Virus record (IMG/VR): IMGVR_UViG_3300042904_000419
Coordinates: 326-64,325 of that record
Length of the DNA: 64,000 nt
Direction: 5' to 3' (one strand)
From: a virus
Lineage: Duplodnaviria > Caudoviricetes
The notes below the pieces were generated by a model that worked only from the letters and a program-made list of their open reading frames with translations, had not been told where the DNA came from and searched no databases. Shown here one piece after another: positions 22,655 to 58,731 of this stretch. Each line of letters begins with the position of its first letter. Position 1 is the first letter of the stretch. The translations under genes were made by a program, and so were the position numbers.

Positions 22655-22881
22655 CACTCCTCGCCTTTCTTCCCCCAACCCCGCGCGTCCGGTTGCGCGC
22701 GTTCGTGCTCGTTCCACTCTCGCTGCTCCGCCTCCAAGGCGTGCAGCTCCAGGCCGCCTACCCGCTCCACCGCGCGCCACAGGGCATCCGTGAGCGCCGC
22801 CGGCAACATCCCCGCGCGCTTCGCGTCCAGGAGGTCAGCGACGGGGACGGTGACCGCGAGGGTGTGGCGCGGCGGATTCAT
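22654..22881 (-). CDS. hypothetical protein
   Basis: ATGA overlap with the MTase stop. Confidence 0.55.
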   Translation of the reverse strand: MNPPRHTLAVTVPVADLLDAKRAGMLPAALTDALWRAVERVGGLELHALEAEQREWNEHERAQPDARGWGKKGEE

Positions 22882-24446
22882 GGGGTCGCCACCCCTAGCC
22901 GCTGCTTCGCCAGCTCGAGATAATCCGCGTTGAGATCGATCCCGATGTAGCGCCGCCCGTGCCTGAGCGCGACGACTCCTGTGGTGCCGCTGCCGTTGAA
23001 GATGTCCAGCACCGTCGCCGGCACCGGCTCGCCCGCGAACGCCGGGTGACAGTCGCAGGACGGCTTCCAGCCGGTGGTCACGTAGGACGCGCAAACCGCC
23101 GGGGAGCGCTTCTGATAGCCCTTCTCGGCCCGCTCCGCGTCCGCCCCAGTGTTGCTGCCGAAGCACGCCGCGTATTCCGGCGTCGGCTCGCTCACGCGCT
23201 CCCACGGGGCGCCACAGAGCCCGCAGACCCCGTGCGCCGACGTGCTGCCGAGGATTGGCGTCTCGACCAGCTTCTCGGGGTAGGTGGCGAAGTGGCAACC
23301 GGCCACCGCCTGCGTCGGGATGGTCCAGATGGAGCGCCGGCGTCGGGTGTCGGAGCCGGAATGCAGGGTAGCCGCGGCTTGCTCCGCGCTGCATTCGTGA
23401 TACTGCCCCGCCTTGCGACTCTTCCATTCGCCGCGCGGCCGGTGCTTGCTGGGGCGTGCGGAATCGGGTGCCGCTGGCTCCCGCACCGCCACGTCATCCC
23501 AGTAGTTCTGCGCCGTCGGCGTGAACATCCAGACGTACTCGTGATCCTTCGTCATCGGCCGGTCCGGCACGCTTTCCGGGAGCGGGTTGGGCTTGTGCCA
23601 CAGGCAGTCCGCCCGCACATACCAGCCGTCCTCCTGCATCGCCACCGCGAGCCGCTGCGGCACCAGGCACAGGTCCTTCGGCTTGATCCGGTCCGCGCCG
23701 AAATCCACCGGCCGCCGCATCGCGTCCTCGCCGGTCGCCGCTCGCATCCGGGCGTGCTTCCGGGCATAGGCCCCGTCGGCATCCTGCACGGGTGCCACGT
23801 TGCCGGCCGGGGACGAGCAGTAGCTATCCGCGATGTTGATCCACAGCACGCCGTCCGGACGCAGCACCCGCCGCACCTCTCGGAACACCTCCACCAGGTG
23901 GGCGATGAACAGGGAAACCGTCGGCTCGGAACCCAGCTCCCCGCGCCACGCATGGCAAAGCTGGCAGAACTGACCCGTGGAGGCGGTGAGCGCTTCCACG
24001 TTGGAGGCGGAGCCCCGGTTAGACGCCTGCTTCTCGGAAAGCGTGTCCAGGTCGCCCCAGCGCGAGCGGCGCGGCGGTTCGAGCCCTCCCCAGGCGTGGG
24101 CGCACTCCGGATCCCCGCCCCAGACCTGCGGAACCGTGCCGTACACCCGGAGGCCGAGGTAGGGCGGGCTGGTCATCACGCAGTGGACGGAGCCGGCGGG
24201 GATGCTCCGCAGCGCCGCAATCACGTGGCCACGGAGCAGGGTCACCCGCTCGTCAGCGTAGGCCGTGACGACCAGCGGCGTTTCGGTCACCGCCACTGTG
24301 CTCTCCCACGCCCCGCCCACCGGGCACATCGCGTACGGCACGGGCGCATCTTTCCCGTTGACGCGCTCCACAAGCAGGCCGCCGTTCGGGAGCGCCTGCC
24401 CTTCCAGCAGCGCACCGTCCTGGCCACGGAGGGAAACGGTGCTCAC
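22878..24446 (-). CDS. DNA N4-cytosine/N6-adenine methyltransferase (beta class)
   Basis: TSPPY catalytic motif, HFATYP, VLDIFNGSGTT SAM-binding motif. Confidence 0.92.
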   Translation of the reverse strand: MSTVSLRGQDGALLEGQALPNGGLLVERVNGKDAPVPYAMCPVGGAWESTVAVTETPLVVTAYADERVTLLRGHVIAALRSIPAGSVHCVMTSPPYLGLRVYGTVPQVWGGDPECAHAWGGLEPPRRSRWGDLDTLSEKQASNRGSASNVEALTASTGQFCQLCHAWRGELGSEPTVSLFIAHLVEVFREVRRVLRPDGVLWINIADSYCSSPAGNVAPVQDADGAYARKHARMRAATGEDAMRRPVDFGADRIKPKDLCLVPQRLAVAMQEDGWYVRADCLWHKPNPLPESVPDRPMTKDHEYVWMFTPTAQNYWDDVAVREPAAPDSARPSKHRPRGEWKSRKAGQYHECSAEQAAATLHSGSDTRRRRSIWTIPTQAVAGCHFATYPEKLVETPILGSTSAHGVCGLCGAPWERVSEPTPEYAACFGSNTGADAERAEKGYQKRSPAVCASYVTTGWKPSCDCHPAFAGEPVPATVLDIFNGSGTTGVVALRHGRRYIGIDLNADYLELAKQRLGVATP

Positions 24447-27062: not shown

Positions 27063-27695
27063 AGCGCACCTCCGGTCAACTCGGCGAACATCCCCAGGAA
27101 GCGCCGTTCGGCCTTCTGCCAGCCCCACGGCTCAATCCGCATCCGGTGCGGCTCGATCCCCTGCAAGCTGTCCCAGCGCTCGATGCAGGGCGCGCCCAGC
27201 AGGTCGCGCGCCTCGGTGCAGAGCAGGATTTCATCTGCCGCCCGCACCAGGTCCGGCAACACCACCAGCCCGCCCCGCATCTCGTAGGGCAAGTCAAAGC
27301 GAAGGCAGGTCGCTGCCATCACCCGAGACTCAGCCTTCGCGTAGACCGGTCCCAGGTGCCGCTTCACCGGCCGGGGAATGTCTTTGAGGCCCAGGCCCTC
27401 CGGCGTGTCGTGGAGGAGCGCCCAGAGGCAGAGGATACGCTCCGCCCCCCCAGCTCTCCAGCAACTCCGCGGCGTGGACGGAATGCTGCCCGACCGAGTA
27501 GAAGCCGCCCTGACCCCCGAAGCGCGTCTCGCACGAAAGGCCGCGCGCAATAGCCTCGATGTGGATCTCTTCGGGGCGAGGGTCCAGCGGCCAGAACGGA
27601 CCGGAGACGGTATGGATCCAGTCGCCGATGCGGGGGTCGGTGGAGGGGTTCGGCGCCTGCGCTACGCCGAGAAGGGATCGGCTTCCTGCTCTCAC
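27059..27695 (-). pseudogene. HD-domain phosphohydrolase (YfbR-like) split by a frameshift in a G7 run
   Basis: RF.G...FYSVGQHS in one frame, ALLHD...DIPRPVK in another; run at 27445-27451. Confidence 0.8.
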
Positions 27696-28783
27696 AGCGC
27701 ACCTCCCGGCATCGCGTCGTGCGTGCGGCCGTCGAGGAGCCGGCCGGCGGCTTTCTTGCCGACGCGATACATCACCGCCTCGCGGTCTCCGTATCCGTCG
27801 TCATCGTGTCCATTCCAGGGAGTAGTCAACGGGGACCACTTCCCGCCTTGGGTGACGGTGCCCCAAGGAGTGCCGCCGAACTCCGGATTGACCGGCACCC
27901 GCCACCCGTCGCCGTCGGGTGTGCGCTCGGCGTGAAAGGGGCGGCGGGCCGTGGCGTGGGAGCACGGCACATGCTCTCCCCACTGCTTGAAGAAGAACGG
28001 CACGCCGGACTGAGCGCATTCATCCCGAAGTGCTCGGAACCAATCCGGGTGGCTCGGCCGGGCGCCGGGGCCACTCTCGCCGCCGCAGATTACCCAGGAG
28101 AGTCCGTCCAGCGCCTTCCGTCGCCCGTGGCCCGAAGAAAGCTCACTGGCGATATCGCTCCGCAGGCCCAAAGCCTCGCACGCCTGCTTGCGGCCCTCCC
28201 ACACGGGGCCGGACAGTTCCACCGGGCCAAGAAGTGGCTCCATCGAGAGAAAGCGCACCGGAATATCCGCGGGTACCGCGAGCAGGGCCGGAACACGCTT
28301 GTTCGCCCATTCCTGGTTCTCGGCGGTCGTGCCGAGCCAGACATTTGCCGGCCAACCGCCGGGCTTTAGCCACGCCTCCGGCACCATCCCCCGCACGTTC
28401 TCCGGCCGCTTGGTGAGCAGTAGCCAATCCAGGTGCGGGGTCGCCTCGATCAGCGCCCAGAGCTTCGGGCGCTCCGCATCCCAGGTCGGATGCTCCTCGA
28501 AGACGTCGGCCATGCTGGCGCAGAACACTTTCCGGCGGATGCCCGCCTTCTCGGCCTGCGCGTTCCACTTCCGGGGCTCGTTCCAGTGCTTCTCGCCGAA
28601 CGTGCGCCGCTCGGCCTTCGGTCCCCACTGCACACCGTAGCGGTTCGCCCAGGTGGCCGCGTAGCAGTGCGTGCACGCGGGGCTGATCTTGGTGCAACCC
28701 CAAAGCGGATTGAACGTGTAGCCAGGCAGCACGGAGCCATCCAATAGGCGGGTAGCGGTCCACTCGATAGTCGTTTCAGCCAT
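27692..28783 (-). CDS. phage Gp37/Gp68 family (DUF5131) protein
   Basis: TTIEWT, GCTKISPACTHCYA, LLTKRP, WVICGGESG, FFFKQWG. Confidence 0.92.
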   Translation of the reverse strand: MAETTIEWTATRLLDGSVLPGYTFNPLWGCTKISPACTHCYAATWANRYGVQWGPKAERRTFGEKHWNEPRKWNAQAEKAGIRRKVFCASMADVFEEHPTWDAERPKLWALIEATPHLDWLLLTKRPENVRGMVPEAWLKPGGWPANVWLGTTAENQEWANKRVPALLAVPADIPVRFLSMEPLLGPVELSGPVWEGRKQACEALGLRSDIASELSSGHGRRKALDGLSWVICGGESGPGARPSHPDWFRALRDECAQSGVPFFFKQWGEHVPCSHATARRPFHAERTPDGDGWRVPVNPEFGGTPWGTVTQGGKWSPLTTPWNGHDDDGYGDREAVMYRVGKKAAGRLLDGRTHDAMPGGAL

Positions 28784-29315: not shown

Positions 29316-29909
29316 TCAGGGCCTCGCCCCCTGTTCCCGGGCGGTGACCGCCACGGCCAGCGCCGCCCACATGTCCTTCGTAACGTGCAGGAGTGGGCCC
29401 GGCGCGCCCACTTTCCCGGCCCCGCCGCAGGTCCCACAACTCACCCGCGCGCCGCCGCGGACACTGCCGGCTACGTCGCCCTTCCCCCGGCACGCCGCGC
29501 ATGTCTGCGGCTTCGCCAGCGCCACGCCGTCGCCGCCCCAGCGGTCGATCAGCGCTTGCCGCACGTGCGGGTCCCCGGCCTTCGGGTTGTCGGTCACGTG
29601 GGTGACACAGGTCTTCCGCGGGAGCAGCAGCGCCTCGGGGCCGTCGCCCCGCTGCCAGGCTTCGGCGTAGCGACCGACCCACAGCGCCGTGTACATCACC
29701 TCGGAGCCGACCGCCTGCCCGTAGCTCCCGGCCAGCATCTCGATCGCGCACACCTGGGCCGCGAAGTGGTCCTGCCGCAGCAGGTGGAGGAGGTCATGGT
29801 TCGGGAGCTTCCCACACTCCACGGTGCGGCCCTCCAGCACGCACCAGGCGGAGAGGGTGGGGCCGGGGTCGATCGCGAGGAGGCGCGGGGTATCGTTTGC
29901 TTGACTCAT
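29316..29909 (-). CDS. RuvC-like Holliday junction resolvase with CxxCxGxG insert
   Basis: LAIDPG, AIE, D.WAALAVA catalytic pattern. Confidence 0.75.
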   Translation of the reverse strand: MSQANDTPRLLAIDPGPTLSAWCVLEGRTVECGKLPNHDLLHLLRQDHFAAQVCAIEMLAGSYGQAVGSEVMYTALWVGRYAEAWQRGDGPEALLLPRKTCVTHVTDNPKAGDPHVRQALIDRWGGDGVALAKPQTCAACRGKGDVAGSVRGGARVSCGTCGGAGKVGAPGPLLHVTKDMWAALAVAVTAREQGARP

Positions 29910-30352
29910 GCCTCGCCTCCCAGGATCAACTGCCGCAGCTCCGCCTTGTCCCGCTGCGCCGGCGTAGGCTCGGCCGGGGCTTCCGGATCCGGCGCCACTA
30001 CGTCGTCAGCCTCAACCGCCCGCAGATCCAGGAACAGCGCGGACATTACCGCGCCCGCAATCCGGGCCTGAAGCTTCTCCATCACCTCGCCGGCCGTGCT
30101 GACCATCGTGACCCGCATCCCGCCGTCTTCGACCGACTCCACGTCCAGCCGGAACGCGCTGCGCTGAGTCGTCTCCGCCAGGCTCCGCAGCATCATCCGC
30201 AGCCCGCGGGCATTCGCCTCTGCCGCCGAGCGCTGCCGCTGCGCTTCGATCAGGTTCCGCTGGAGGGTCGCCACCTCCGCCTCGCGGGCTTGCAGCTCGG
30301 CAAACGTCTGCTCGAACAGCGCCCGCTCATCCGGGGTCAGGGGCTCGCTCAT
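29906..30352 (-). CDS. hypothetical coiled-coil protein
   Basis: ATGA overlap chain. Confidence 0.6.
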   Translation of the reverse strand: MSEPLTPDERALFEQTFAELQAREAEVATLQRNLIEAQRQRSAAEANARGLRMMLRSLAETTQRSAFRLDVESVEDGGMRVTMVSTAGEVMEKLQARIAGAVMSALFLDLRAVEADDVVAPDPEAPAEPTPAQRDKAELRQLILGGEA

Positions 30353-30753
30353 GGCGTCACCGCCTGCGCTAGTGGCTCCCGATGCAGCAGCCCAAAGCAC
30401 CACACCCAACTCCCGCCGTCCACATAAAGGCGCGGAAAATGCCAGATGTTCTGCCCCTCGCGCTTCAGGTAACGGACCTGTTCCAAAGGCAAGCCGGGCA
30501 TCTCCACCTCGCTCTCAATGCCCTCCCCCCTCACCAGGAAGCCGAAGCGCCCGTCTGCATCCAGGTCGGGCCGACGCTCCCACGTAAGCGGCGAAGTGGC
30601 CCGATAGGCGCGGTCGCCGGGGTAATGGCCCGCCAGCTCGTCATGGATCGCCTGGTCGGCGCAGTCCGCGCAGAACTGCGCGATGTTGGCCACCGCATGC
30701 GCTTCGGTCGCGTCCGCCACTGGGCCGCTGCCCGGATTGATGCAAATCACCAT
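30349..30753 (-). CDS. hypothetical protein
   Basis: GGAGG SD; ends RLYVDGGSWVW. Confidence 0.65.
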   Translation of the reverse strand: MVICINPGSGPVADATEAHAVANIAQFCADCADQAIHDELAGHYPGDRAYRATSPLTWERRPDLDADGRFGFLVRGEGIESEVEMPGLPLEQVRYLKREGQNIWHFPRLYVDGGSWVWCFGLLHREPLAQAVTP

Positions 30754-30788
30754 CCCTCCCCCTTTCCGGGCGCCTCGCGCCCCGTCGT

Positions 30789-31010
30789 CTATCCCAGCTC
30801 CAGCGTGGGCACCGGATCCCGCGCCACCAGCCCGCGATGCTCCGGCCCGGCCACCTGGCGGCCGCTCGCCGTATACAGCCGCACGTGTCGCCGCTGTGGG
30901 TGCGCCCGGAAGCCTTCCCAGTACCCGCGCGCCGCCTGCCGGTTCGGCTGCTCCGTCCAGCACTGCCGCCGGACGTGTCCCACCCACCACTCCAGGCGAT
31001 AGCGAGGCAT
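30789..31010 (-). CDS. hypothetical protein
   Basis: GGGAG SD; 73 aa. Confidence 0.45.
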   Translation of the reverse strand: MPRYRLEWWVGHVRRQCWTEQPNRQAARGYWEGFRAHPQRRHVRLYTASGRQVAGPEHRGLVARDPVPTLELG

Positions 31011-31059
31011 CAGAACTCCCTCGCCGTCGGCATCGTGATGATGGCGATAGGGGCCAGCA

Positions 31060-35061: not shown

Positions 35062-35360
35062 TCCGGCACCTCCACCCCTGCGGCACGCAGCGCCCGCGCC
35101 AGCGAGAGCATCCGCTGTTGGGCGCGCGCCGCACCGCTATCGACGCCGACCAGGGTGTCGCCGGTCCGGAAGTCCGCTTCCCGGCAAACCAGGAGCAGTT
35201 CCAGCGCCGCTTCCGCTACCGGACGGAAATACAAGGCCTCGGCGGCGCTCACTGGCGCGTGCCCGAAGCCGTCCTCGGGACGCACCCAGGCATGTGTCCC
35301 GAGGACCGTCTCCTGGTCGTTGCCCAGGAAGACAGCAGTATCCGGCGGTGCTTCGCTCAC
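35058..35360 (-). CDS. hypothetical protein
   Basis: GGAGG SD, overlap chain. Confidence 0.55.
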   Translation of the reverse strand: MSEAPPDTAVFLGNDQETVLGTHAWVRPEDGFGHAPVSAAEALYFRPVAEAALELLLVCREADFRTGDTLVGVDSGAARAQQRMLSLARALRAAGVEVPE

Positions 35361-36289
35361 AGCAACCTCCCGGTTTCCACCGGCTCGTCCGCGCCAGCAT
35401 CGCCCGCAAACTGGTCCTCGTCCTCGACCACTTCGGAGGCGAGTGGCCAGTTCGTATCCCCCGGCAGGCAGCCGCGCTGCTGCAGGAGTTGCACGAAGCG
35501 CTCCTTGCCGGCGGGGGTGACCTGGTTCAGCGCCCGAAAGTTCTCGCCGAGAGCCGCCCCGATGTGCTGGAGGAGCGCGGCGCGGTTCTTGGGGTCGCCG
35601 CCGGCCGCGATGTACGTCTCGTTGAAGACGCGCACCTGGTCCTTCTCCGGCAGGTCGGCGTACGCGGGGTCGGGCGCCGGTGCCTGGAGTTGGGCCGGCT
35701 GCTCCTCGATAATCCGGGAAGTGCCGGGGATCGCCTGCCCCTCGTCCATCAGGTCGAGGTCGCCGATACCGGCCTGCGGGATCTTCCGCCAGCAGTGCGC
35801 TTCGGCGCGGACCGCGAGCATGTGGAGTGGGCGCTGCTTCCAGTTGGGGTTGAACTCCATGAAGAATTCCTTCAGGTAGATCACCGCCTCGAACGCCCGG
35901 GAGCTCCCAGCGATCCACATCTGGCACCGGCAGGCGACCGGCAGTTCCTTCCGGACCCAGATCGAGCGCCATACCTCGTCTTCGCCGCAGTACGCAATCT
36001 CCAGCCCGTTGACCCGCGCGCGCTGCCCGCCCAGGTGCCGGAAGCCGTCAATCCCGGTCGCCATGACCAGCTTGCCGGTCTTGTCCGTCCAGCCGTAGAT
36101 GTGGCGCTGCAGGGGGTCGAGCCCCTTGCGCTCGCAGTAGGCCATGAACACGAGAAACTGATCGTCCTTCGTGATGCCGGAGGCCACCGTCTGCCGGATG
36201 GTCTGCCGGAGCTGCTGGCTAAACACCAGCCCCGTCTGCTGCTGCGCCAGGCCGTGGTTTCCGTGCCGGGCGATTGCCGTCTCTGACAT
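35357..36289 (-). CDS. bet: single-strand annealing protein, Bet/RecT family
   Basis: F...C...GLDP....IY, GIDGFR, W...P..ML...AEAH..RK. Confidence 0.88.
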   Translation of the reverse strand: MSETAIARHGNHGLAQQQTGLVFSQQLRQTIRQTVASGITKDDQFLVFMAYCERKGLDPLQRHIYGWTDKTGKLVMATGIDGFRHLGGQRARVNGLEIAYCGEDEVWRSIWVRKELPVACRCQMWIAGSSRAFEAVIYLKEFFMEFNPNWKQRPLHMLAVRAEAHCWRKIPQAGIGDLDLMDEGQAIPGTSRIIEEQPAQLQAPAPDPAYADLPEKDQVRVFNETYIAAGGDPKNRAALLQHIGAALGENFRALNQVTPAGKERFVQLLQQRGCLPGDTNWPLASEVVEDEDQFAGDAGADEPVETGRLL

Positions 36290-36387
36290 GTCCGTCTCTC
36301 CTCTTGGCAGTGGGCAGAGACGGCGGGGAAGGGCTCCCCGCCGCCCGTAGGGTGCGCCGCCTGCCGTACGCGGCGCACCCATGCGGT

Positions 36388-36651
36388 CTAATCCCAGAGC
36401 GCGGCGCGGCGCTTGGCCTCCGCTGCCTGCTCCTCCGGCGTCTGCCGGGCTCGCTGTTCCGCTGCCAGCGCCTCGCGGCAAGGGCGGCACATCTCCGCCG
36501 CCTCCCGCGTCAGCGCCGCCGCGAGCAGTTCCTCGGTCATCTGCGCGTCCAGGTCGATCTGCTCCGGGTGCCGCTGTCCGTCTGGGCACTCCCGGAACAC
36601 GGTCAGGCGGCGGTACAGCATCCGCACCCGTGGTCGGAACCGATCGTCCAT
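36388..36651 (-). CDS. hypothetical protein
   Basis: GGGGAG SD; ends AALWD. Confidence 0.6.
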   Translation of the reverse strand: MDDRFRPRVRMLYRRLTVFRECPDGQRHPEQIDLDAQMTEELLAAALTREAAEMCRPCREALAAEQRARQTPEEQAAEAKRRAALWD

Positions 36652-36695
36652 CCGTCTCCCCCTCGTCCCGCCCGCAGGCTCCACCCCGCGAGCGA

Positions 36696-36817
36696 AGGAG
36701 AGAGGCCTGAGTCGAACAGGCTGCCCCGCGCCGCCGAAGCGGAAGCGTTACTCGGGGTGTCTAGCGGCCGTTGAAGTGATCGCTGGCTTGTGGGTCACCG
36801 TCCCCACCGCTCTCTCC
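36696..36817 (-). ncRNA. tRNA-Sec (selC)-like RNA with UCA loop and enlarged anticodon/variable arms
   Basis: 8-bp acceptor GGAGAGAG/CTCTCTCC; D arm GTGGG-GA-CGGT-GA-CCCAC; CTTCAAC loop; long variable hairpin with TTCG loop; T arm GCCTG-TTCGACT-CAGGC. Confidence 0.7.
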
Positions 36818-36868
36818 GTGGTCCCGGATCTACGCGCACCGGGCGATAGCGGGAGCGGTTACTCCTCT

Positions 36869-37378
36869 TCAGGCTCCTCCGGCGGCCCGGCCGCCCACAT
36901 CAACAGCAGCACCCACAGCGCCCAGAACAGCGTCCGCATGCCTACCTCCGTAGAGCCACAGGCCGAGCGAGAGCACCCCGCCGGACAGCAGCGTGAGCAG
37001 CGCCAGGAGGCTCTGCTCCGTGAACCACAGCCCGCCCACCATGAGCGAGAGCGCCACCGCGCAGACGCCGCCCAGCCACAGCCGGAAGCGCGCGTACCGC
37101 TCCGCCTGCGCGACCTCCTGCTGCCGGACTTCCAGCGCCGCCCAGGAGGCCAGCAGTCGGGCCTGGTCGCGCCGGAGCGCTTCCTCGCGGGTATCCAGGG
37201 CTCCGGCCCGCACGTCCAGTTCCTGCAGGTCCGCCCGGCAGGCAGCGGCGCTCATCACGTCCGCCGCCCACTGGTCGAGGCGAGCGGTGCGGGTGTTCAG
37301 CTCCGCCTCGCGCCGGTCGAGGTCCTGAGCCCGGACGCGTAGGGCGCGCTCGGTTAGGGTGGGGAGGGGCTCGTTCAC
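36869..37378 (-). CDS. coiled-coil membrane protein
   Basis: Heptad N-half, hydrophobic C-half. Confidence 0.65.
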   Translation of the reverse strand: MNEPLPTLTERALRVRAQDLDRREAELNTRTARLDQWAADVMSAAACRADLQELDVRAGALDTREEALRRDQARLLASWAALEVRQQEVAQAERYARFRLWLGGVCAVALSLMVGGLWFTEQSLLALLTLLSGGVLSLGLWLYGGRHADAVLGAVGAAVDVGGRAAGGA

Positions 37379-37737
37379 TGGCGGTCCTCCACAGCCTGCC
37401 AGCGAGCGGCGAACGCCCCGGCCTGGGTCAGCGTGTCCCGGATGGCCGGGTAGTCCGGCGTCGGCTCGGCGAGCTGCACCAGGGCGTCTCGGACCGCGTC
37501 ATACAGCCACGGGAGCGCCGGTTCCCCGAGCGGATCGGCCAGCAGCACCAGCGGCTGCAACTGGTCCCGGAGCGTGGCGAGGATCCGCACGGCGTCCACG
37601 CGGCGACGTGGGGCGGAGAAGCCGGAGACGACGATCTGCGCCAGCCGGAGCCGGATCCGCGTGTGCCGCGGCGTGAGCGGGTGGGCGAGGTTGCCGTCGC
37701 GCTGGGGGCAGAGGGCCGGGCGGGGAGCCGTGTTCAT
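37375..37737 (-). CDS. hypothetical protein
   Basis: GGAGG SD, overlap chain. Confidence 0.6.
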   Translation of the reverse strand: MNTAPRPALCPQRDGNLAHPLTPRHTRIRLRLAQIVVSGFSAPRRRVDAVRILATLRDQLQPLVLLADPLGEPALPWLYDAVRDALVQLAEPTPDYPAIRDTLTQAGAFAARWQAVEDRQ

Positions 37738-38226
37738 CTACGCGGCCTCCGCCAGCACGTCGCCGGCATCGCTGTATTCGCAGAAGCAGCAGCCGTTCGG
37801 GCGGTGTGTCGCCACCCCGCAGTCGCACACGTACTCCGCGCCCCAGTCGGCGGTTTCGGGATCGAGGCGCACGCGGGCTTCCCACCAGGCCGGATCGTTA
37901 TGGGCGAGCACCCGCTCCACCCAGGCCACGGTCTGCGCGAAGTGCCGGGTAGCCATCCGCTCGGCCTGGTAAGCGCCGTACTTCTTGCCGTCCAGCATGT
38001 CCTGGGCGACCCGGCCGGCGCGGAGCTTCTGCGCCTGGAAGAACCGGCGACGGATGGTGTTCGCGGGCTCCGAGAGCCGCGGGTAGTCGGCAAGGGAAGG
38101 GAAGCGCGCGAAGGGCACGGTGGCGCTGCCGGCCGGCCCATCCGCCCAGATGATCTGTGAAAGTGGGCGCTGTAGGGGCGATCCCTCGGTAGGTGCTTGT
38201 CGTGGGGGTCGGGTTTGCGTTACCAT
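37738..38226 (-). CDS. hypothetical protein with C-terminal Cys cluster
   Basis: CDCG.....CCFC; start uncertain. Confidence 0.6.
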   Translation of the reverse strand: MVTQTRPPRQAPTEGSPLQRPLSQIIWADGPAGSATVPFARFPSLADYPRLSEPANTIRRRFFQAQKLRAGRVAQDMLDGKKYGAYQAERMATRHFAQTVAWVERVLAHNDPAWWEARVRLDPETADWGAEYVCDCGVATHRPNGCCFCEYSDAGDVLAEAA

Positions 38227-38316
38227 GTGCGTGTTCCTGAACGGCTCGGTGCAATGGGTGTCAGCCCGCACCGGGCCGTTTTGCGTGTACCGGCCGGCTG
38301 ATCCCGGCCGAAGTCG

Positions 38317-38550
38317 TTAAGCGGCGGCCTGGTCGGACGCCGTGCCCAGGTGCGCTTGCTGCCGCAGCCATTGGCGCGGGATGCGCTTCTGCTTCCCGAC
38401 CGCCACCGCGGCGATGGAGCCGCGCTCGATCCCGGTGCGGACGGCGCGCTCGCCGGTGTTCAGGATCTGCGCGGCCTGGACCACGGACAGGAAGACCGGC
38501 CAGGTGGCGGGATCTTCGGGGTTGAAGGCGGGGGCGCTCGGAGTGTCCAT
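38317..38550 (-). CDS. xis: excisionase-like HTH protein
   Basis: LSVVQAAQIL...VR..I..G.I.A..VG...RIPR. Confidence 0.8.
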   Translation of the reverse strand: MDTPSAPAFNPEDPATWPVFLSVVQAAQILNTGERAVRTGIERGSIAAVAVGKQKRIPRQWLRQQAHLGTASDQAAA

Positions 38551-38759
38551 CAGGCGGCGACCTCCTCGCGGTCGATCACGCCGGCGGCCCGGAACAGGGC
38601 CTTCCACTTCGCGAGGGTCGTAGCTGACACCCCCAGGAATGCCGCCTGCGCCTCGCGGGTCTCGTACTCGCGAACGGCCTGCGCCACGATCTCCTCGATC
38701 GGCTTCCCGTGGTGGCGCTCCAGCATCCGCATGTAAGTGCTCTTCTCGCTCGCTTGCAT
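38550..38759 (-). CDS. Cro-like HTH protein
   Basis: AAFLGVSATTLAKW; divergent from the repressor. Confidence 0.7.
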   Translation of the reverse strand: MQASEKSTYMRMLERHHGKPIEEIVAQAVREYETREAQAAFLGVSATTLAKWKALFRAAGVIDREEVAA

Positions 38760-38775
38760 CGGTGGTCCCTGAATA

Positions 38776-38846
38776 AAGAAGTCGGTTATCTCACTTCTTC
38801 ACCACTATAGACGGTCGATCCTTCCGCAAGTTGCAAAGAAGTGAGA
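38776..38846. promoter_or_regulatory. lysis/lysogeny switch operators
   Basis: AT-rich gap; inverted 11-mer TCTCACTTCTT (38789-38799) / AAGAAGTGAGA (38836-38846); partial copy AAGAAGT at 38776. Confidence 0.65.
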
Positions 38847-38927
38847 AACTTTTTTTATCCAGGGGCGTTCGTTAGGTTGATGACCACACTAGCGCTCGAA
38901 GTCCGCCCCTCGGTAAGGGTCGGCCCC

Positions 38928-39398
38928 ATGGAGTTCAGCCGTAAGTTCCGGGAGCTGGTAGCAGGCGAGCTACAGCGCGACGTGGCTAACAAGCTACAGT
39001 TCACGGCGTCGCGCATCAGCCAGATCATGCGGGGCGAGAAGCCCAGCCGCGAGTTCGTGGAGCGGGTGATCGAGGTCTACGGCGTCGATCGCGAGGAATG
39101 GCTGGGATATGCCGGCTTCGGTCCGAAGGGCCCCACGGACGAGCGCGAGGACCTGATTCGGCGGACCACCGAGGAGGTGCTGCGGGCCACGTCGTCTGCC
39201 TACCAGGCCCTTAGCGCCGCCTCCTGGTTCCTGGCGGAATACGCCCGGATCCAACACGCCCACCCGCACCTCTTCATCCCGCTTCCGTCGCTGCGCGGCG
39301 GCATCGAGGGGCTGACGATGGAGGGCGCGAAAGACCTCATCCGGCTCACGGAAGAACTGATTGCCGAGGGCAAGTTCGGGCCGCGGCCGCTCTCCTGA
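38928..39398 (+). CDS. CI-like XRE repressor
   Basis: QRDVANKL..T.S.ISQI.RG...PS HTH; upstream of ImmA-like gene and integrase; start could be 38880. Confidence 0.8.
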   Translation: MEFSRKFRELVAGELQRDVANKLQFTASRISQIMRGEKPSREFVERVIEVYGVDREEWLGYAGFGPKGPTDEREDLIRRTTEEVLRATSSAYQALSAASWFLAEYARIQHAHPHLFIPLPSLRGGIEGLTMEGAKDLIRLTEELIAEGKFGPRPLS

Positions 39399-40075: not shown

Positions 40076-41215
40076 ATGGCCTCGGGACACGTGCGGAAGC
40101 GGACCTCGACCTGGGCCTACGTGCTGGAGCTGCCGAAGGGGCTGGACGGGAAGCGCCGGCAGCAGTGGGTGAGCGGCTTCAAGACGAAGAAGGCAGCGCA
40201 GGCGGCGCTCAACCAGGCCCTGGCGGACCTGGAGAGCGGCGGCTGGTCGGAAGCATCCAAACTCACCGTCGCGGAGTATCTGGCGAAGTGGCTGGCGATC
40301 GTGGCGCCGGGGGTGAAGCCGGCCACCCTTCACGCCTACCGGCGCGAGTGCAGCACCCTGAGCGTCGTGTTCGGGGAGCTCCCCCTCGCGCGGCTCACTA
40401 CCCTCCACCTGCGCGAGTGGTACCCGAAGGCCCTGGCGGCCGGCGTCTCCCACGGGAAGCTCGCCTACACGCAAACGATCCTCTCCATGGCCCTGAAGGC
40501 GGCGGTGCAGATGGACCTGGTGCGGAAGAACGTGGCGTCCGCCGCGCCTCCGCCGAAGCGCCCGCTGTCCGACGAGCCGGAGCCGCCGCCGGCGCTGGCG
40601 CAGGAGGAGGTCCTGCGGATGCTGGCGGCGCTCCCGGAATGGATGCGGATCCTCACCATTGTCACGGTGGCCACCGGTCTTCGCCGCGGGGAAGTGCTGG
40701 CGCTCCGCTGGTCGGACGTGGACCTGGAGCACGGGATGCTGCGCACCCGGCAGAACCTGGTGCCGCTCCCGAATGGGGGGCTGGCGTTCTCCTCGCTCAA
40801 GACGCAGAAGTCCCGCCGGGAAGTGAGCCTCAGCCCGAAGCTGGTAGCGCTCCTGCGTGAGCACCGCGCGGCGCAGTGCCAGGTGCGGGCCCTGCTCGGT
40901 CCGGACTACCAGGAGCATTACGACCTGGTGTTCCCCCGTTCGGACGGCTCGCCGCGGAACCCTAACGTGGTCACCGACACCTGGAGTAACATCCGCCGGA
41001 AGCTCGACCTCCCCTACACCTTCCACGATCTCCGCCACACGCAGGCGACGCTGCTCATGGAGGCCGGGGTCCCGGATAAGGTCGTCAGCGCCCGCCTCGG
41101 GCACGCGAAGACGAAGACCACGCAGGACCTGTACTCCCACGTCCGCCTGGTCTCCCAGAACCAGGCGGCGGCGGCCGTCGAGACCTGGCTGGAAGGGCTG
41201 GACGGGGCGGGTTAA
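40076..41215 (+). CDS. int: tyrosine integrase
   Basis: TGLRRGE, FHDLRH, RLGH, DLYSH; N-terminal arm-binding GFKTKK.A. Confidence 0.95.
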   Translation: MASGHVRKRTSTWAYVLELPKGLDGKRRQQWVSGFKTKKAAQAALNQALADLESGGWSEASKLTVAEYLAKWLAIVAPGVKPATLHAYRRECSTLSVVFGELPLARLTTLHLREWYPKALAAGVSHGKLAYTQTILSMALKAAVQMDLVRKNVASAAPPPKRPLSDEPEPPPALAQEEVLRMLAALPEWMRILTIVTVATGLRRGEVLALRWSDVDLEHGMLRTRQNLVPLPNGGLAFSSLKTQKSRREVSLSPKLVALLREHRAAQCQVRALLGPDYQEHYDLVFPRSDGSPRNPNVVTDTWSNIRRKLDLPYTFHDLRHTQATLLMEAGVPDKVVSARLGHAKTKTTQDLYSHVRLVSQNQAAAAVETWLEGLDGAG

Positions 41216-41236
41216 GGGGCGTTTTTCTGCCCTCCG

Positions 41237-41533
41237 TTTGCAAATCGCTTGCAAAGGCCCTGTTCGCGGAGCTCTCCAGGCACGAAATAAGGCCACCTGT
41301 GCAAATGGCCCATTATACCCCGCCCCTGCACCCAGGGGAAGTTAGGCCACGTTCCGGCGGGCTCCAGGCACGAGCGACGGGGTCGGAATCGGGTAAATGC
41401 CCCCGTTGGCTGCGTCTCCGTGCGTTCCGGCGTTTGCAAAGTGGAGAGCGGCGCGAGATTGGCACTTCCTGCCCCCGGATTTGCTGGACGCGCGACTCTG
41501 CCTGTGGTAAATGGCAAACAGATGTTTGCAATT
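41237..41533. other. probable intact attP with arm-type repeats
   Basis: Non-coding ~330 bp after int; (G)TTTGCAAA-like motifs at ~41237, 41248, 41432, 41525; CTCCAGGCACGA at 41274 and 41362. Confidence 0.6.
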
Positions 41534-41553
41534 ACCGAACAGGAGACGCAGAG

Positions 41554-42051
41554 ATGTTCGATCGGACGTGCGGGAAGTGCGGGGCCGGGCTGCGCGCCCG
41601 GGATCAGGGTTGCCGGAACTGCAACAAGACAGTGACCTCCGCCAAGACGGAAATCGCCAAGCCGACGGTACCGAAGCGCCACCGCGGCGACTCCGCCGGT
41701 ATCCGCATCCCCGCGCCGGTGGCGGAGGTCGTCCAATCGCCGGCGCTCGTGTTGGCGTCGCGGGCGAGTGAGCCGGCTCCGGACCTGGTGCTGGACGTGC
41801 CAGCGGAGAAGCCGAAGAAGGGGACCGGGCGCAAGCGGGCCGCGAAGGAGGCCCCGGCGCCGCTGCCGCTGGAGGTGACCGAGCCGGTGGAGCCTCCGGT
41901 CGAACTGGTGGCGGAGAGCACCGAGACGACTCCGGACGTGTCGGACGCGCTGGCGCCCGCACCGGTGGAGATCGTCCCCGCGCCGGAGCCCGAGCCGTTA
42001 GTGGTGGAATCTGCAGAGCCCAGCGAGCCCGCTCCGGAGGTCATCCCGTGA
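41554..42051 (+). CDS. zinc-ribbon protein with Pro/Glu-rich disordered tail
   Basis: CGKCG...CRNC; AGGAG SD. Confidence 0.7.
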   Translation: MFDRTCGKCGAGLRARDQGCRNCNKTVTSAKTEIAKPTVPKRHRGDSAGIRIPAPVAEVVQSPALVLASRASEPAPDLVLDVPAEKPKKGTGRKRAAKEAPAPLPLEVTEPVEPPVELVAESTETTPDVSDALAPAPVEIVPAPEPEPLVVESAEPSEPAPEVIP

Positions 42052-42763: not shown

Positions 42764-44752
42764 GTGCTGCCTGTGAGCACCGGTGTCTCTCCGACGATCT
42801 ACGCCGTCGATCTCTTCTGCGGCGCCGGTGGCTTCAGCTCCGGCCTCGCGTTGGCCGCCGCGGAGCTGGGCCTCGACCTCGACCTGCTGGCGATCAACCA
42901 CTGGCAGGTGGCGGTGGAGACTCACAGCAAGAACCACCCGGCCGCGCGGCACCTCTGCCAATCGATCGAGACCGTTAACCCCCGGGAAGCGGTGCCCGGC
43001 GGCAAACTGAACCTGCTCCTCGCCTCCCCGGAATGCACGCACTTCAGCTCGGCCCGGGGCGGGAAGCCGATGAGCGAGCAGCGCCGCGCCACGCCCTGGT
43101 GTATCCTGCGCTGGTTGGACGCCCTCGACGTCGAGTCGGTGGTAATCGAGAACGTCCCGGAGTTCGTGACCTGGGGGCCGCTCCACCCGGCGGACCACAA
43201 GGACGAGAAGAAGCGGGACCGACCGGTCGAGAAAGACAAGGGCAAGTACTTCCGCAACTTCGTCCGGAACCTCCAGAGCCTCGGCTACCGGGTCGACTGG
43301 CGGGTCCTCAACGCGGCGGATTACGGCGCGGCCACCACCCGGAAACGGCTGTTCCTGCTGGCCCGTAAGACGCGGCGACCGATCCGCTGGCCGGAGCCGA
43401 CGCACGGGAAGGCGACGGGGTCTGTGCAAGGCGACCTCGGCCTGAGTGCCGTGCGTCTCCCCTGGCGAGCGGCGCGGGAGATCATCGACTGGGAGCTCAA
43501 GGGCGAGTCGATCTATGAGCGCAAGCGACCCCTCGCGCCGAACACCCTGGCGCGGATCATGGCCGGGCTGGAGAAGTTCAGCGGGCTCCCGTTCATCGTC
43601 GGCGCGGGCGGACCCACGAATGGCGGGAACCCGCAGAGTGTGGAGAGTCCGCTAGGAGCACTCCTGACGGAGAACCACCGCGCCCTCTGCGAGCCGTTCC
43701 TGGTGGTTCTCCGCAATCACGCGGACGGCCGGAGCCTGGACGAACCGGTGCCGGCGCTCGCAGCCAACGGGACTCACGTCGGGATTGCGGAGCCGTTCCT
43801 CGTGGGCTTCACCCATTCGAAGCGGGAGAACGGCTGTGTCTACTCCGCAGACTCGCCAGTACCGTGCGTTACCACGAAGGCTGAGGTGGGGATCGCCGAA
43901 CCGTTCCTCGTGAACATGAAAGGGAACTCCGATGCCGCGGACATTAACCTGCCTACCCCCACGATCACAGCAGGCGCTCCGCACCTCTACGCCGCCGAAC
44001 CCTACCTGGTCAGCGTAAACCACGGCCCAGAGGCGCGGGTCCGTGACCTCGACCGGCCGCTGCCGGCACAGACCGGGAAGGGCACCCAGGCACTCATCGA
44101 GCCGTTCCTGATCGGCCAGCAGTCCGGAGCCGTGGCGCGAGGGGTGAGTGGGCCCGGCCCGACCGTGGCCGGTGCCGGGGCGATCAGCCTGGTCGAGCCC
44201 TTCATCCTACCGCATCAGCACGGTAGCAGCGGCCTGGACAACGTGCGGAGCATCGAGGTGCCGCTGCCGTCGGTCACCGGCACCTCGTCGGACATGTTCC
44301 TGGCGGATCCATACCTCGTGGACTTCTACGGCGAGCGGGATGGCCAGGCGCCGCGCTGCCGCAGTGTGGACGACCCCCTGACGACAGTGGCGGGTAGCCG
44401 AACCCACGGACTTGCCCAGCCGTTCCTGCTCCGGTACTCCACGAAGGACCGGCAATCCCAGAGCGTGCATGAGCCGCTGGGCTGCGTGGATACCACCGAT
44501 CGGTACGCGCTCGTGCATCCGGAGTTGGTGCGGAGCGGGCAGGTGCAGGGGGAGGTGGTCGGCTACCTGGATATCCGGTTCCGAATGCTGCAGCCGCATG
44601 AGCTCGCCGCGGCGATGAGCTTCCCGGAAACCTACACCTTTACCGGCAACCGGGAACAGGTGGTTAAGCAGATCGGAAACGCCGTGGACGTGAGCCAGGC
44701 CAAGGCGCTCTGCGGCGCGGTGCTCAAGAGCTTTCTGGGGGTTACCCCATGA
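42764..44752 (+). CDS. DNA C5-cytosine methyltransferase with repeated variable region
   Basis: DLFCGAGG, SPECT, ENV, R.RLF, KQIGNAV; about nine EPF(L)/PYL-anchored repeats. Confidence 0.95.
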   Translation: MLPVSTGVSPTIYAVDLFCGAGGFSSGLALAAAELGLDLDLLAINHWQVAVETHSKNHPAARHLCQSIETVNPREAVPGGKLNLLLASPECTHFSSARGGKPMSEQRRATPWCILRWLDALDVESVVIENVPEFVTWGPLHPADHKDEKKRDRPVEKDKGKYFRNFVRNLQSLGYRVDWRVLNAADYGAATTRKRLFLLARKTRRPIRWPEPTHGKATGSVQGDLGLSAVRLPWRAAREIIDWELKGESIYERKRPLAPNTLARIMAGLEKFSGLPFIVGAGGPTNGGNPQSVESPLGALLTENHRALCEPFLVVLRNHADGRSLDEPVPALAANGTHVGIAEPFLVGFTHSKRENGCVYSADSPVPCVTTKAEVGIAEPFLVNMKGNSDAADINLPTPTITAGAPHLYAAEPYLVSVNHGPEARVRDLDRPLPAQTGKGTQALIEPFLIGQQSGAVARGVSGPGPTVAGAGAISLVEPFILPHQHGSSGLDNVRSIEVPLPSVTGTSSDMFLADPYLVDFYGERDGQAPRCRSVDDPLTTVAGSRTHGLAQPFLLRYSTKDRQSQSVHEPLGCVDTTDRYALVHPELVRSGQVQGEVVGYLDIRFRMLQPHELAAAMSFPETYTFTGNREQVVKQIGNAVDVSQAKALCGAVLKSFLGVTP

Positions 44753-46339: not shown

Positions 46340-46900
46340 AGCAGGGTTAGTATCCGGCCCGGATCCGGGAGAGGCCGTGAGGCCACATCCGCGATGGCTC
46401 GGTGGTTCTTCGCCTCGATAACACGATTTGCCCGGCAAACGGGCGACAGGGTTCGGGAAACGCGGCCTCGAAAACCGCGCGCTCCTTAGTGCCGCAAGGC
46501 AGCCGCCTCGAAAACGGTAGAGCACCCGAGCAGCATACCCTGCCAGTCACCGGGGATCGGCTCCCGGCCCTACCCGTGCGGGGGCTGCACGGGACCTGAC
46601 GCGGTGGAGCAGTTGGTAGCTCGTCGGCCTCATAAGCCGAAGGTCGGCGGTTCGAGTCCGTCCTGCGTCCCTCCGGTGCGGAACCGGTGTCACGAGCGTG
46701 AGCCATTGACTGGGGCCGGGGAAGCGTTCTCCCCGGCCTCTTCTTTCGTCCGCACCTCGGCGTCACGCTTTACGCAGTCGGGGAGCGATCCCCACTCCGC
46801 GCCCGGACGGGTTCCGGGTAACAGCGGTTTCGCTGTGCCAGTGCTTACTTCAAATCCATGATCCTGGCCCGGAGCCCCCGCTCCGGGCCTTTCTTCATCC
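46340..46900 (+). ncRNA. candidate large structured RNA surrounding tRNA-Met
   Basis: ~560 nt with no credible CDS; nested stems, GCAA tetraloop, two identical CCTCGAAAA loops, closing terminator at 46867-46896. Confidence 0.5.
46598..46670 (+). tRNA. tRNA-Met(CAT), no encoded CCA
   Basis: GACGCGG/CTGCGTC acceptor; GAGC/GCTC D stem; TCGGC-CTCATAA-GCCGA; GGCGG-TTCGAGT-CCGTC. Confidence 0.88.
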
Positions 46901-50062: not shown

Positions 50063-50129
50063 CGCGAAGTAGCTCAACGGTAGAGCGCCGGGCTTCCCGG
50101 TGACCGCGGTTCAACTCCGCGCTTCGCAA
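50063..50129 (+). ncRNA. tRNA-like RNA with anticodon loop reduced to 3 nt
   Basis: C-GCGAAG/CTTCGC-A; GCTC-AACGGTA-GAGC; CCGGG-CTT-CCCGG; CGCGG-TTCAACT-CCGCG. Confidence 0.8.
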
Positions 50130-50205: not shown

Positions 50206-50940
50206 ATGGAACCAGGAACGGTTAACCCCCGCGGCGCCCGCTTCACCGACCAGGAGCTGCGCGAAGACCTCGGCAGCGGGCTCAAGCCGGCGGACATCGC
50301 CCGAAAGTACCAGGTCAGCCCCGCAGCGGTCTCCAAGCGGATCACGAAGCTCAACCTGGCCACCACCACGGCGGCTGTCGCCCCCGAGGAATCCCGCCGG
50401 TTCGTCAGCGGTCAGATCAACGCCATCGAGCAGTTGGAGCGCGGCCTGGGCCGGGTGAACCTGCTGATGGATGCCTGCGACGCGTGGCTGCGGAGTGCAG
50501 ACGATCCGGAGCGCTACGACGTGGGGGCCCGCGCCGAAGAGGTAGACGTCACGTACGAGGTAGAGGTCCGCACCGCGAACGGCTCCCTGGTTACCCAGAA
50601 GCGCACCAAGCGGCTCACAGAGCTGATGGGCTGCCTGGAAGGCGAGGACGAAGACGGCGCCCGGTTCTGCGGCTGGAAGCACGGCGAGACCAAGCGCGCC
50701 GACCCCCGCGAGTTGATCCTCCGCACCGTAGCCGAAGGCCGGCAGACGGTGGCAGCCGCTACGGAGCTCGCGAAGCTCCTGGCAGACATGCGGGCCATGC
50801 AGGAGTGGCGCGAGGTGGTGCTGGGAGCGATCGGGAGAGCGGCGCCGGATGTTCGCGACGAAATCATCGCCGAGGTTCGATCCTCTCTCGTTCTCCGCGG
50901 GCTTCTTGACGGACCCGCGGGCAGCGGTCAGGTGCACTGA
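50206..50940 (+). CDS. terS: terminase small subunit
   Basis: N-terminal HTH (ADIARKYQVSPAAVSKR); overlaps terL. Confidence 0.7.
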   Translation: MEPGTVNPRGARFTDQELREDLGSGLKPADIARKYQVSPAAVSKRITKLNLATTTAAVAPEESRRFVSGQINAIEQLERGLGRVNLLMDACDAWLRSADDPERYDVGARAEEVDVTYEVEVRTANGSLVTQKRTKRLTELMGCLEGEDEDGARFCGWKHGETKRADPRELILRTVAEGRQTVAAATELAKLLADMRAMQEWREVVLGAIGRAAPDVRDEIIAEVRSSLVLRGLLDGPAGSGQVH

Positions 50941-58650: not shown

Positions 58651-58731
58651 GACTGCGTAGCCCAATTGGAAGAGGCACGACGACCGAATAGGTACGCCGC
58701 ACCGGCGCAGGTTCGAATCCTGCCGCAGTCC
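58651..58731 (+). ncRNA. class II (Leu/Ser-like) tRNA-like RNA with degenerate anticodon arm
   Basis: GACTGCG/CGCAGTC; GCC-CAATTGGAAGA-GGC; variable arm GCCG-CAC-CGGC; GCAGG-TTCGAAT-CCTGC; only ACC/GGT pairs in the anticodon arm. Confidence 0.78.

Follow-up and report, generated by a model that had tools for sequence, protein, structure and literature searches.

The window analysed here is the whole stretch of 64,000 nucleotides that spans positions 326 to 64,325 of the IMG/VR virus record IMGVR_UViG_3300042904_000419 (Duplodnaviria; Caudoviricetes), i.e., almost the entire record, which is 64,325 bp long, carries direct terminal repeats and has a G+C content of approximately 68%. All positions given below are those of the window. 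The subject is a 122-nt tRNA-like element at positions 36817-36696 on the minus strand, which occurs as a single copy in the record and had been described from its letters alone (the original prediction) as an RNA resembling the selenocysteine tRNA (tRNA-Sec).

The element is intergenic, and stop codons are present inside it in all three minus-strand frames. It begins 41 nt past a TAA stop codon (36861-36859), finishes 44 nt ahead of an ATG start codon (36651-36649) and lies on the same strand as the flanking open reading frames (ORFs), which is the coding strand of the leftward early operon. This operon starts at 38759 and encodes two small helix-turn-helix (HTH) proteins, three proteins without an assigned function, RecT, an RNase H-like protein, a replication initiator and DnaB. 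The parts of the element and its closest neighbours are listed in Table 1.

Table 1. Parts of the tRNA-like element and neighbouring genes.
Feature	Positions	Strand	Properties
Acceptor stem, 5' strand (8 nt)	36810-36817	-	8/8 Watson-Crick pairs with 36697-36704; pair probability 0.67-1.0
Acceptor stem, 3' strand (8 nt)	36697-36704	-	Contiguous with the T stem (zero-nt gap)
D arm	36790-36807	-	5 Watson-Crick pairs plus two G.A/A.G appositions around a CGGU loop; pair probability ~0.85
Anticodon-like hairpin	36763-36784	-	4+2 pairs, A.C mismatch, one G.U, 8-nt loop ACUUCAAC; pair probability 0.62-0.77
UCA triplet in the loop	36774-36772	-	RNA positions 44-46; TGA on the plus strand
Extra (variable) arm hairpin (34 nt)	36724-36757	-	-15.3 kcal/mol when folded alone; outer pairs 0.98-1.0
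T arm	36705-36721	-	5-bp stem, G-C closing pair, 7-nt loop UUCGACU; pair probability 0.99-1.0; aligns to the RF01852 T arm
Discriminator-position U, unpaired, no CCA after it	36696	-	Read from the sequence
Upstream neighbour, 26-codon ORF	36859-36938	-	GGAGG ribosome-binding site; hydrophobic segment followed by an acidic tail; no Pfam match
Downstream neighbour, 87-aa ORF	36388-36651	-	No Pfam match above threshold
recT	35357-36289	-	310 aa; follows the 87-aa ORF; Pfam and PHROGs

Fold of the element and its excess over chance

All arms named in the original prediction, from the acceptor and T stems through the D stem and the UCA loop to the long variable hairpin, were read off the minus strand. 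The resulting cloverleaf is both the minimum free energy (MFE) structure and the centroid structure in RNAfold, and it was kept when 236 nt of context were folded. Eight acceptor pairs and five T-stem pairs, all Watson-Crick and contiguous, form a 13-bp (8/5) acceptor/T branch, in which the fifth T-stem pair (G-C) has a probability of 0.99. The spacer between acceptor stem and D stem is 2 nt long. Thermodynamic folding leaves the G.A appositions of the D arm open; in the Rfam alignment this arm appears as a tRNA-Sec D arm of 6 bp and 4 nt with two non-standard pairs flagged. The five outer pairs of the extra arm are perfect. The UUCG cap previously assigned to its tip can be drawn, whereas the MFE structure has a 3-nt loop at this place.

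The weakest arm is the anticodon-like hairpin, with -3.7 kcal/mol when folded alone. Its loop shows U-UCA-A in the canonical order. On both sides the hairpin is flanked by unpaired 5-nt linkers (36785-36789 on the D-stem side, 36758-36762 on the extra-arm side), a feature that had been overlooked. The fold of the 236 nt also contains an 11-bp G+C-rich hairpin without a U tail (36668-36694, minus strand), which stands immediately 3' of the element and before the next ribosome-binding site. Of the sequencing runs listed for the stretch none is an RNA run; the only DNA run, possibly the source of the record, contains it as a single identical contig with zero variants over the element.

The excess over chance was determined with a descriptor that combined a TTCRANN loop, a 5-bp T stem contiguous with an 8-bp acceptor stem, a 2-nt spacer, a D stem of 4-6 bp, GG in the D loop and a total length of 70-134 nt. 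The descriptor was written after the element had been seen, which inflates the result somewhat, although it consists of textbook tRNA rules only. The only match in the window was the element itself. With a 7-bp acceptor and the D-arm rule dropped, it matched the element, the canonical tRNA-Met of the phage and a tRNA-like gene at 58651. Regarding 300 dinucleotide-shuffled windows, the full descriptor yielded no match at all; 11 matches (0.037 per window) were found when the D-arm rule was dropped. One match was obtained in real phage and prophage DNA of similar G+C richness (168 loci, 2,527,355 bases), and ARAGORN identifies it as a genuine tRNA-Arg. The upper half of a tRNA is thus clearly present and beyond chance, because of the descriptor geometry and not because of the folding energy, which is uninformative, as expected at 68% G+C.

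Relation to tRNA-Sec and other irregular tRNAs

An Rfam search of 136 nt with laxer filters yielded the tRNA-Sec family RF01852 as the sole match among 4227 families. The match covers 36697-36817 (minus strand) and the full model, so the predicted architectural type (8/5 branch, long D stem with a 4-nt loop, long extra arm) was confirmed; its score of 22.3 bits lies well below the cut-off of 47 bits, and the E value of 0.015 applies to this small search. Scaled by hand, the E value would be about 7 for the whole window and all families and about 0.002 for this family alone. The alignment places the acceptor, D, extra and T arms, whereas the anticodon arm could not be placed, 41 nt being treated there as an insertion. 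Searches with stricter settings or wider ranges did not report the element: Rfam at gathering thresholds gave tRNA matches at three other sites of the window but not at the element, an E-value search of 301 nt found no tRNA family at the element, the RF01852 match was unreported in a search of the whole record, and ARAGORN under default settings called only the tRNA-Met in the window. A tRNA-Arg with a 38-nt intron, which ARAGORN places at the element if introns are allowed and the threshold is lowered (23 calls in the window), was rejected as a forced fit.

Under the same model the phage's own tRNA-Met scores 27 bits and ordinary tRNAs from 25 bacterial genomes score 33-50 bits, whereas true selC genes score 64.1-79.8 bits in 10 of those 25 genomes and 53.5-83.8 bits at 7/7 loci on viral contigs. 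The element is therefore tRNA-Sec-like in architecture, yet a poorer tRNA than any real one tested. Genuine selC genes on IMG/VR viral contigs were seen at L019, L020, L021 and L024/L028 as well as at about 15 loci of enterobacterial type, several of them near a contig end; they probably represent the host flanks of prophages integrated at selC.

Features shared with bacterial tRNA-Sec (selC; RF01852) are the 8/5 branch of 13 bp, the long D stem with a 4-nt loop of the YGGU type, the long extra arm and the sequence U-UCA-A; the T-loop motif of the element is also found in true selC genes (e.g., L038 and L019). The departures listed in the original prediction (8-nt loop, A.C mismatch, U discriminator, excess length, no sel genes) are all real. 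The discriminator (position 73 in tRNA numbering) is U instead of G, the loop has 8 instead of 7 nt, the anticodon stem contains the A.C and G.U appositions, the linkers measure 5 nt and the extra arm 34 nt. While 7/10 high-G+C selC genes end in CCA, the element encodes none. The D arm, with five Watson-Crick pairs and two G.A appositions that stay unpaired in thermodynamic folds, is compared with a 6-bp stem and 4-nt loop in tRNA-Sec. Likewise, the UCA of a tRNA-Sec stands in a 7-nt loop on a regular stem of 5-6 bp that is joined directly to the D stem; UCA is present in the element, but in the larger loop, on the irregular stem and between the linkers. According to the accessible part of a survey of 3213 predicted genes (PMC5330540), G73 is essential in tRNA-Sec, and matches without G73 are possibly pseudogenes.

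In real tRNAs, one unpaired nucleotide stands between the D stem and the anticodon stem, and none or very few precede the extra arm. Judged by tRNA geometry, an anticodon set in the 8-nt loop and between the 5-nt linkers is expected to be out of place with respect to the acceptor end, and the linkers argue most strongly against decoding. The element is not a bona fide tRNA-Sec, and UGA is probably not decoded as selenocysteine because the anticodon arm is malformed.

The coding content of the window agrees with this. No match to selA, selB or selD was found in the phage record, and none of 59 ORFs scanned with Pfam and PHROGs resembles a tRNA-related enzyme, an elongation factor or CysRS. TGA is the stop codon of 38/63 predicted ORFs, including most early-operon ORFs downstream of the element, and is not avoided. 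No TGA with coding-like sequence of at least 50 codons on both sides occurs in the window, and 0 of the 16 longest in-frame extensions past TGA stops have a coding G+C pattern. The weak UGA suppression that had been suggested thus found nothing in its support. The frame of dnaB is open for 236 codons beyond its TGA, with G+C fractions of 0.75/0.62/0.69 at the three codon positions, which is non-coding-like. The 650 nt between the ORF at 29906-30409 and dnaB (30410-31059, minus strand) contain no ORF with the usual coding G+C pattern.

Irregular tRNA-Sec-like tRNAs were described by Mukai et al. 2017 (PMC5389517), cited here from its accessible parts. The selC* tRNA-Cys genes described there were first met as false positives of a tRNA-Sec covariance model; their body is like that of tRNA-Sec, with U73 and either GCA or UCA as anticodon. 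They occur in anaerobic bacteria beside selB*/cysS* and have regular anticodon arms; some show an 8/4 branch with a bulge. The selC* signature of U73 plus UCA on a tRNA-Sec-like body, a match that the original prediction had missed, is present in the element (36696; 36774-36772), which differs in being located in a phage, in lacking selB*/cysS* partners among the 59 ORFs scanned and in its irregular anticodon arm. The allo-tRNAs of the same source, often from soil Acidobacteria, are defined by a 12-bp branch (8/4 or 9/3); a tetraloop caps their long D stem, the extra arm is long and position 73 is G or U. 'Irregular tRNA' polycistrons are reported from soil metagenomes and a few 8/4 forms from phages. 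Some allo-tRNAs have changes that destabilise stems, additional loops or junctions of five stems, and these failed to translate in Escherichia coli; allo-tRNA(UAU) is likewise inactive (PMC5389517, in part). The element shares the long extra arm, the long D stem with a tetraloop, the permitted U73 and the origin from soil, whereas its 13-bp (8/5) branch sets it apart from the 12-bp type.

A further comparison concerns phage tRNAs that counter tRNA-targeting defences (PMC10264068, PMC11464382, PMC11555353, each as far as accessible). Those tRNAs are also phage-encoded, their anticodon loops differ from those of the host, and they are thought to matter early in infection; they are canonical and decode, whereas the element is unlikely to do so. 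A role as replacement tRNA in tRNA-dependent lysogeny (PMC10865867, in part) is unlikely for a non-essential, malformed Sec-type tRNA. Literature searches confined to an open-access library yielded no description of a phage-borne 8/5 tRNA-Sec-like gene. The element was filed as an irregular, tRNA-Sec-like kind of tRNA outside the tRNA-Sec, selC* and allo-tRNA families; the irregular and five-stem allo-tRNAs of figures S1, S5 and S6 of PMC5389517 may include a closer structural match.

The claim that the element is derived from tRNA-Sec fared less well than the claim of likeness. With a score below that of ordinary tRNAs and no donor selC found, derivation from selC is not established. Global alignments to 10 true high-G+C selC genes yielded 60-72 identities over 84-92 aligned positions (z = 1.1-4.3 against shuffles), the best partner being a Zixibacteria gene. 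A covariance model made from the element itself (R1) failed to detect any of 10 selC genes that had been identified independently. Its matches to the selC genes of L019 (26.4 bits) and L036 (20.1 bits) are circular, because the pattern used to select those loci was derived from the loops of the element. In 38 related viral records R1 gave a single match of 14 bits, which lies inside a capsid gene and was read as chance. The same applies to a 29.9-bit match in 151 Actinomycetota genomes, in which many pairs are broken and both a T loop and an Rfam match are missing.

Homologues were sought in several further ways, all with a negative outcome. A blastn comparison of 36500-37000 with GenBank phages gave no match. 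In IMG/VR, no match was found to the exact 25-mer of T arm and acceptor, to a loops-only pattern or to an acceptor plus T-loop pattern. The loops-only pattern hit 30 loci in metagenome contigs, 0/30 of which had a 5-bp T stem plus 8-bp acceptor, and these were read as chance; a looser loops pattern hit 33 loci in IMG/VR, about 20 of them true selC genes and the rest coding sequence, none like the element. Anchoring on RecT as a single protein retrieved no loci in IMG/VR, metagenome contigs or genome contigs. A search of IMG/VR with a RecT alignment retrieved L272 and L273, neither of them with a tRNA-like element; only two of the candidates scored were RecT homologues at E<=1e-10 (49% and 40% identity). 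The recT gene of L272 is preceded by two small ORFs. Loci anchored on DnaB were only about 30% identical, and the capsid relatives (40-58% identity) are scattered among Streptomyces, Micromonospora, Terricaulis, Chloroflexota and others.

Genomic context and further tRNA-like genes

Regarding the upstream neighbour, 24/26 third codon positions of the 26-codon ORF are G or C, compared with about half in the overlapping last 25 codons of a 169-aa ORF (36869-37378); the 26-codon ORF is therefore possibly the true coding frame there. A plus-strand ORF that covers the element (36413-37342) was rejected for lack of a Pfam match and because of its shadow-like codon G+C pattern. No sigma-70-type promoter was found by a consensus scan of 36000-39200, which covers this promoter type only and may not suit the host. 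The sole terminator-like site in the same range (38264-38276) is on the other strand and far from the element.

Judged from codon-position G+C, Pfam and PHROGs, the layout of the genome appears to be that of a temperate tailed phage. Rightward from 38841 follow genes for a repressor-like HTH protein, a metalloprotease-like protein and a tyrosine integrase (40076-41215) and, past 41216-41555, for methyltransferases, terminase, portal and an HK97-type capsid protein. Two large DNA methyltransferases, of the N6/N4 type and of the C5 type, are encoded at 22878-24446 (minus strand) and 42764-44752 (plus strand), and a DUF5131 protein is encoded at 27692-28783. The region 41216-41555 (plus strand), right after the integrase gene, is an AT-richer non-coding stretch with at least 5 copies of a TTGCAAA-type motif, in which no tRNA fragment was seen; it is probably attP with arm-type integrase sites. 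The element as an attP or integration scar, an alternative raised in the original prediction, was discarded: the element has both acceptor strands, i.e., is full-length, lies 3.3 kb from the integrase and shares at most 8 nt with the arm-type repeat region.

Besides the canonical tRNA-Met (46598-46671), two further tRNA-like genes are present. The first (50063-50129, plus strand) scores 58.1 bits with the Rfam tRNA model and has an anticodon loop of 3 nt (0 nt aligned where 4 are expected). The acceptor stem begins with a C.A mismatch, and the loop is closed by three G-C pairs. Both features are hallmarks of the bacterial initiator tRNA, so that the gene resembles an initiator tRNA lacking its anticodon. 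It lies 76 nt upstream of an ORF (50206-50940) that precedes the large terminase gene. ARAGORN at a lowered threshold reads it alternatively as a 65-nt tRNA-Lys(CUU), and blastn against 16 genomes gave only partial matches of 20-26 nt. The second (58651-58731, plus strand) scores 35.2 bits; its acceptor, D and T arms are normal, but 25 nt replace the 17-nt anticodon arm, and it follows a strong hairpin between two head-region ORFs. None of the four tRNA-like genes encodes CCA in its 3' trailer. Three of the four are alike in combining an intact upper half with an abnormal anticodon arm in an intergenic gap of an operon. Such a common pattern is not what three independent random decays should produce, and it suggests that the tRNA body itself is put to use.

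Interpretation and alternatives

The element is tentatively interpreted as a gene-like, non-decoding tRNA mimic that would be cut from the early-operon transcript. Its retained upper half (acceptor stacked on the T stem, consensus T loop, GG in the D loop) would offer the parts recognised by RNase P, by 3' processing and CCA-adding enzymes and by acceptor-binding proteins. The element would most likely be transcribed together with the leftward early operon; host RNase P and 3' tRNA-processing enzymes would then excise it, and CCA would be added. Excision would also sever the early mRNA, separating the upstream membrane-protein genes from the recombination/replication module. In the C4 RNA of phages P1 and P7, which is processed by RNase P, and in mitochondrial tRNA punctuation, a tRNA shape within a polycistron serves as a cleavage signal. 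The element would share with these systems a tRNA shape in a polycistronic context; a sequence relationship is lacking, as the Rfam scan found no such family. The freed RNA could not decode and would act via its tRNA body, not via its anticodon; the preference of the original prediction for a non-translational or marginal role agrees with the tests.

Several results weigh against this interpretation. The folding energy is unexceptional (z = -1.26, with 20/200 shuffles folding as well; z = 0.07 with flanks), and the covariance-model score is lower than that of any real tRNA tested. The element is an orphan without a homologue in any search, which leaves neither covariation nor any sign of selection. 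In L272, the recT relative with 40% identity, no tRNA-like element is found in the 594 nt upstream of recT, where the contig ends. The 58651 gene is missing from L157, the closest capsid relative (79% identity), whose 80-nt gap holds a hairpin only; because of this absence, these elements are regarded as dispensable, lineage-specific insertions.

One alternative is a functionless relic, i.e., a selC-type or other long-arm tRNA gene acquired from a host or another phage and now decaying, with the anticodon arm already broken, which would persist merely on account of its youth. This is a possible explanation, if one on the unlikely side. It is consistent with the orphan status in pattern, protein-anchored and model searches and with the absence at the only retrieved recT relative, and the defects resemble those of tRNA-Sec predictions without G73 (PMC5330540, in part); inactive allo-tRNAs with stem disruptions are likewise on record (PMC5389517, in part). 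On the other hand, 13/13 acceptor/T pairs, the T loop and the five outer pairs of the extra arm are perfect and the damage is confined to one arm, while two further tRNA-like genes show the same intact top and altered anticodon arm, which three random decays are unlikely to have produced alike. Phage genomes, moreover, usually shed dead DNA quickly.

Alternatively, the processed RNA might occupy host proteins that bind the tRNA body, either tRNA-cleaving defence nucleases or, in a selenocysteine-using host, SerRS, SelA or SelB, whereby real tRNAs would be protected or host translation disturbed early in infection. Such a decoy or sponge is distinctly unlikely, since no conservation was found and the published defence-countering phage tRNAs (PMC10264068, PMC11464382, PMC11555353, in part) are working tRNAs with small loop changes rather than anticodon-disabled ones. 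What speaks for it, apart from the existence of those tRNAs, is the position in the early operon and the combination of intact protein-recognition surfaces with an altered anticodon arm in this element and the two further genes. Still more doubtful is the wider proposal that the phage keeps all three anticodon-disabled tRNA mimics (36696-36817, 50063-50129, 58651-58731) as decoys for tRNA-cleaving nucleases or tRNA-binding factors, outside translation.

A working suppressor of the selC* or allo-tRNA type, charged with Ser or Cys and reading UGA or, via the 8-nt loop, a four-base codon at low efficiency, is improbable. According to PMC5389517 (in part), U73 together with UCA marks selC* tRNA-Cys, a long extra arm combined with G73 or U73 indicates Ser identity in allo-tRNAs, and irregular tRNAs can be active in E. 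coli; the canonical order of the loop fits as well. Against this stand the misplacement of the anticodon expected from the linkers and the loop, the weakness of the anticodon hairpin, the frequent use of TGA as a stop without coding-like read-through or a split gene, the lack of a selB- or cysS-like partner gene and the covariance-model score under that of every real tRNA tested. Finally, it is very improbable that ordinary GC-rich hairpins in an intergenic spacer look like a cloverleaf by chance: the unexceptional folding energies, the sub-threshold score that is lost in the 301-nt and whole-genome searches, the 23 to 744 'genes' called in the window by ARAGORN at lowered thresholds and the 29.9 bits that R1 assigns to a random GC-rich stretch would allow it, but the descriptor matched 0/300 shuffled windows and nothing but a tRNA in 2.5 Mb of real DNA, and the exact T-loop consensus with its G-C closing pair, the GG of the D loop, the 2-nt spacer and the zero-nt stacking of T stem and acceptor argue against it.

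Bacteria and, in a few cases, phages are known to carry irregular tRNA-Sec-like tRNAs such as allo-tRNAs and selC*; most of their roles are still unsettled, and several of them are inactive in translation. The element is an 8/5 form with U73 and UCA whose anticodon arm is disabled, located in the early operon of what appears to be a temperate phage. Possible roles comprise mRNA punctuation by RNase P/RNase Z, sequestration of a synthetase or of selenocysteine factors, and a decoy of tRNA-targeting immunity. The reading of all three mimics as decoys, if true, would represent a counter-defence principle distinct from that of 'resistant but working' phage tRNAs. If the element is only a relic, it would record the capture of selC-type genes by phages outside attachment sites. 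If it is expressed and processed, it would provide a compact natural test case for a tRNA body that is unable to decode.

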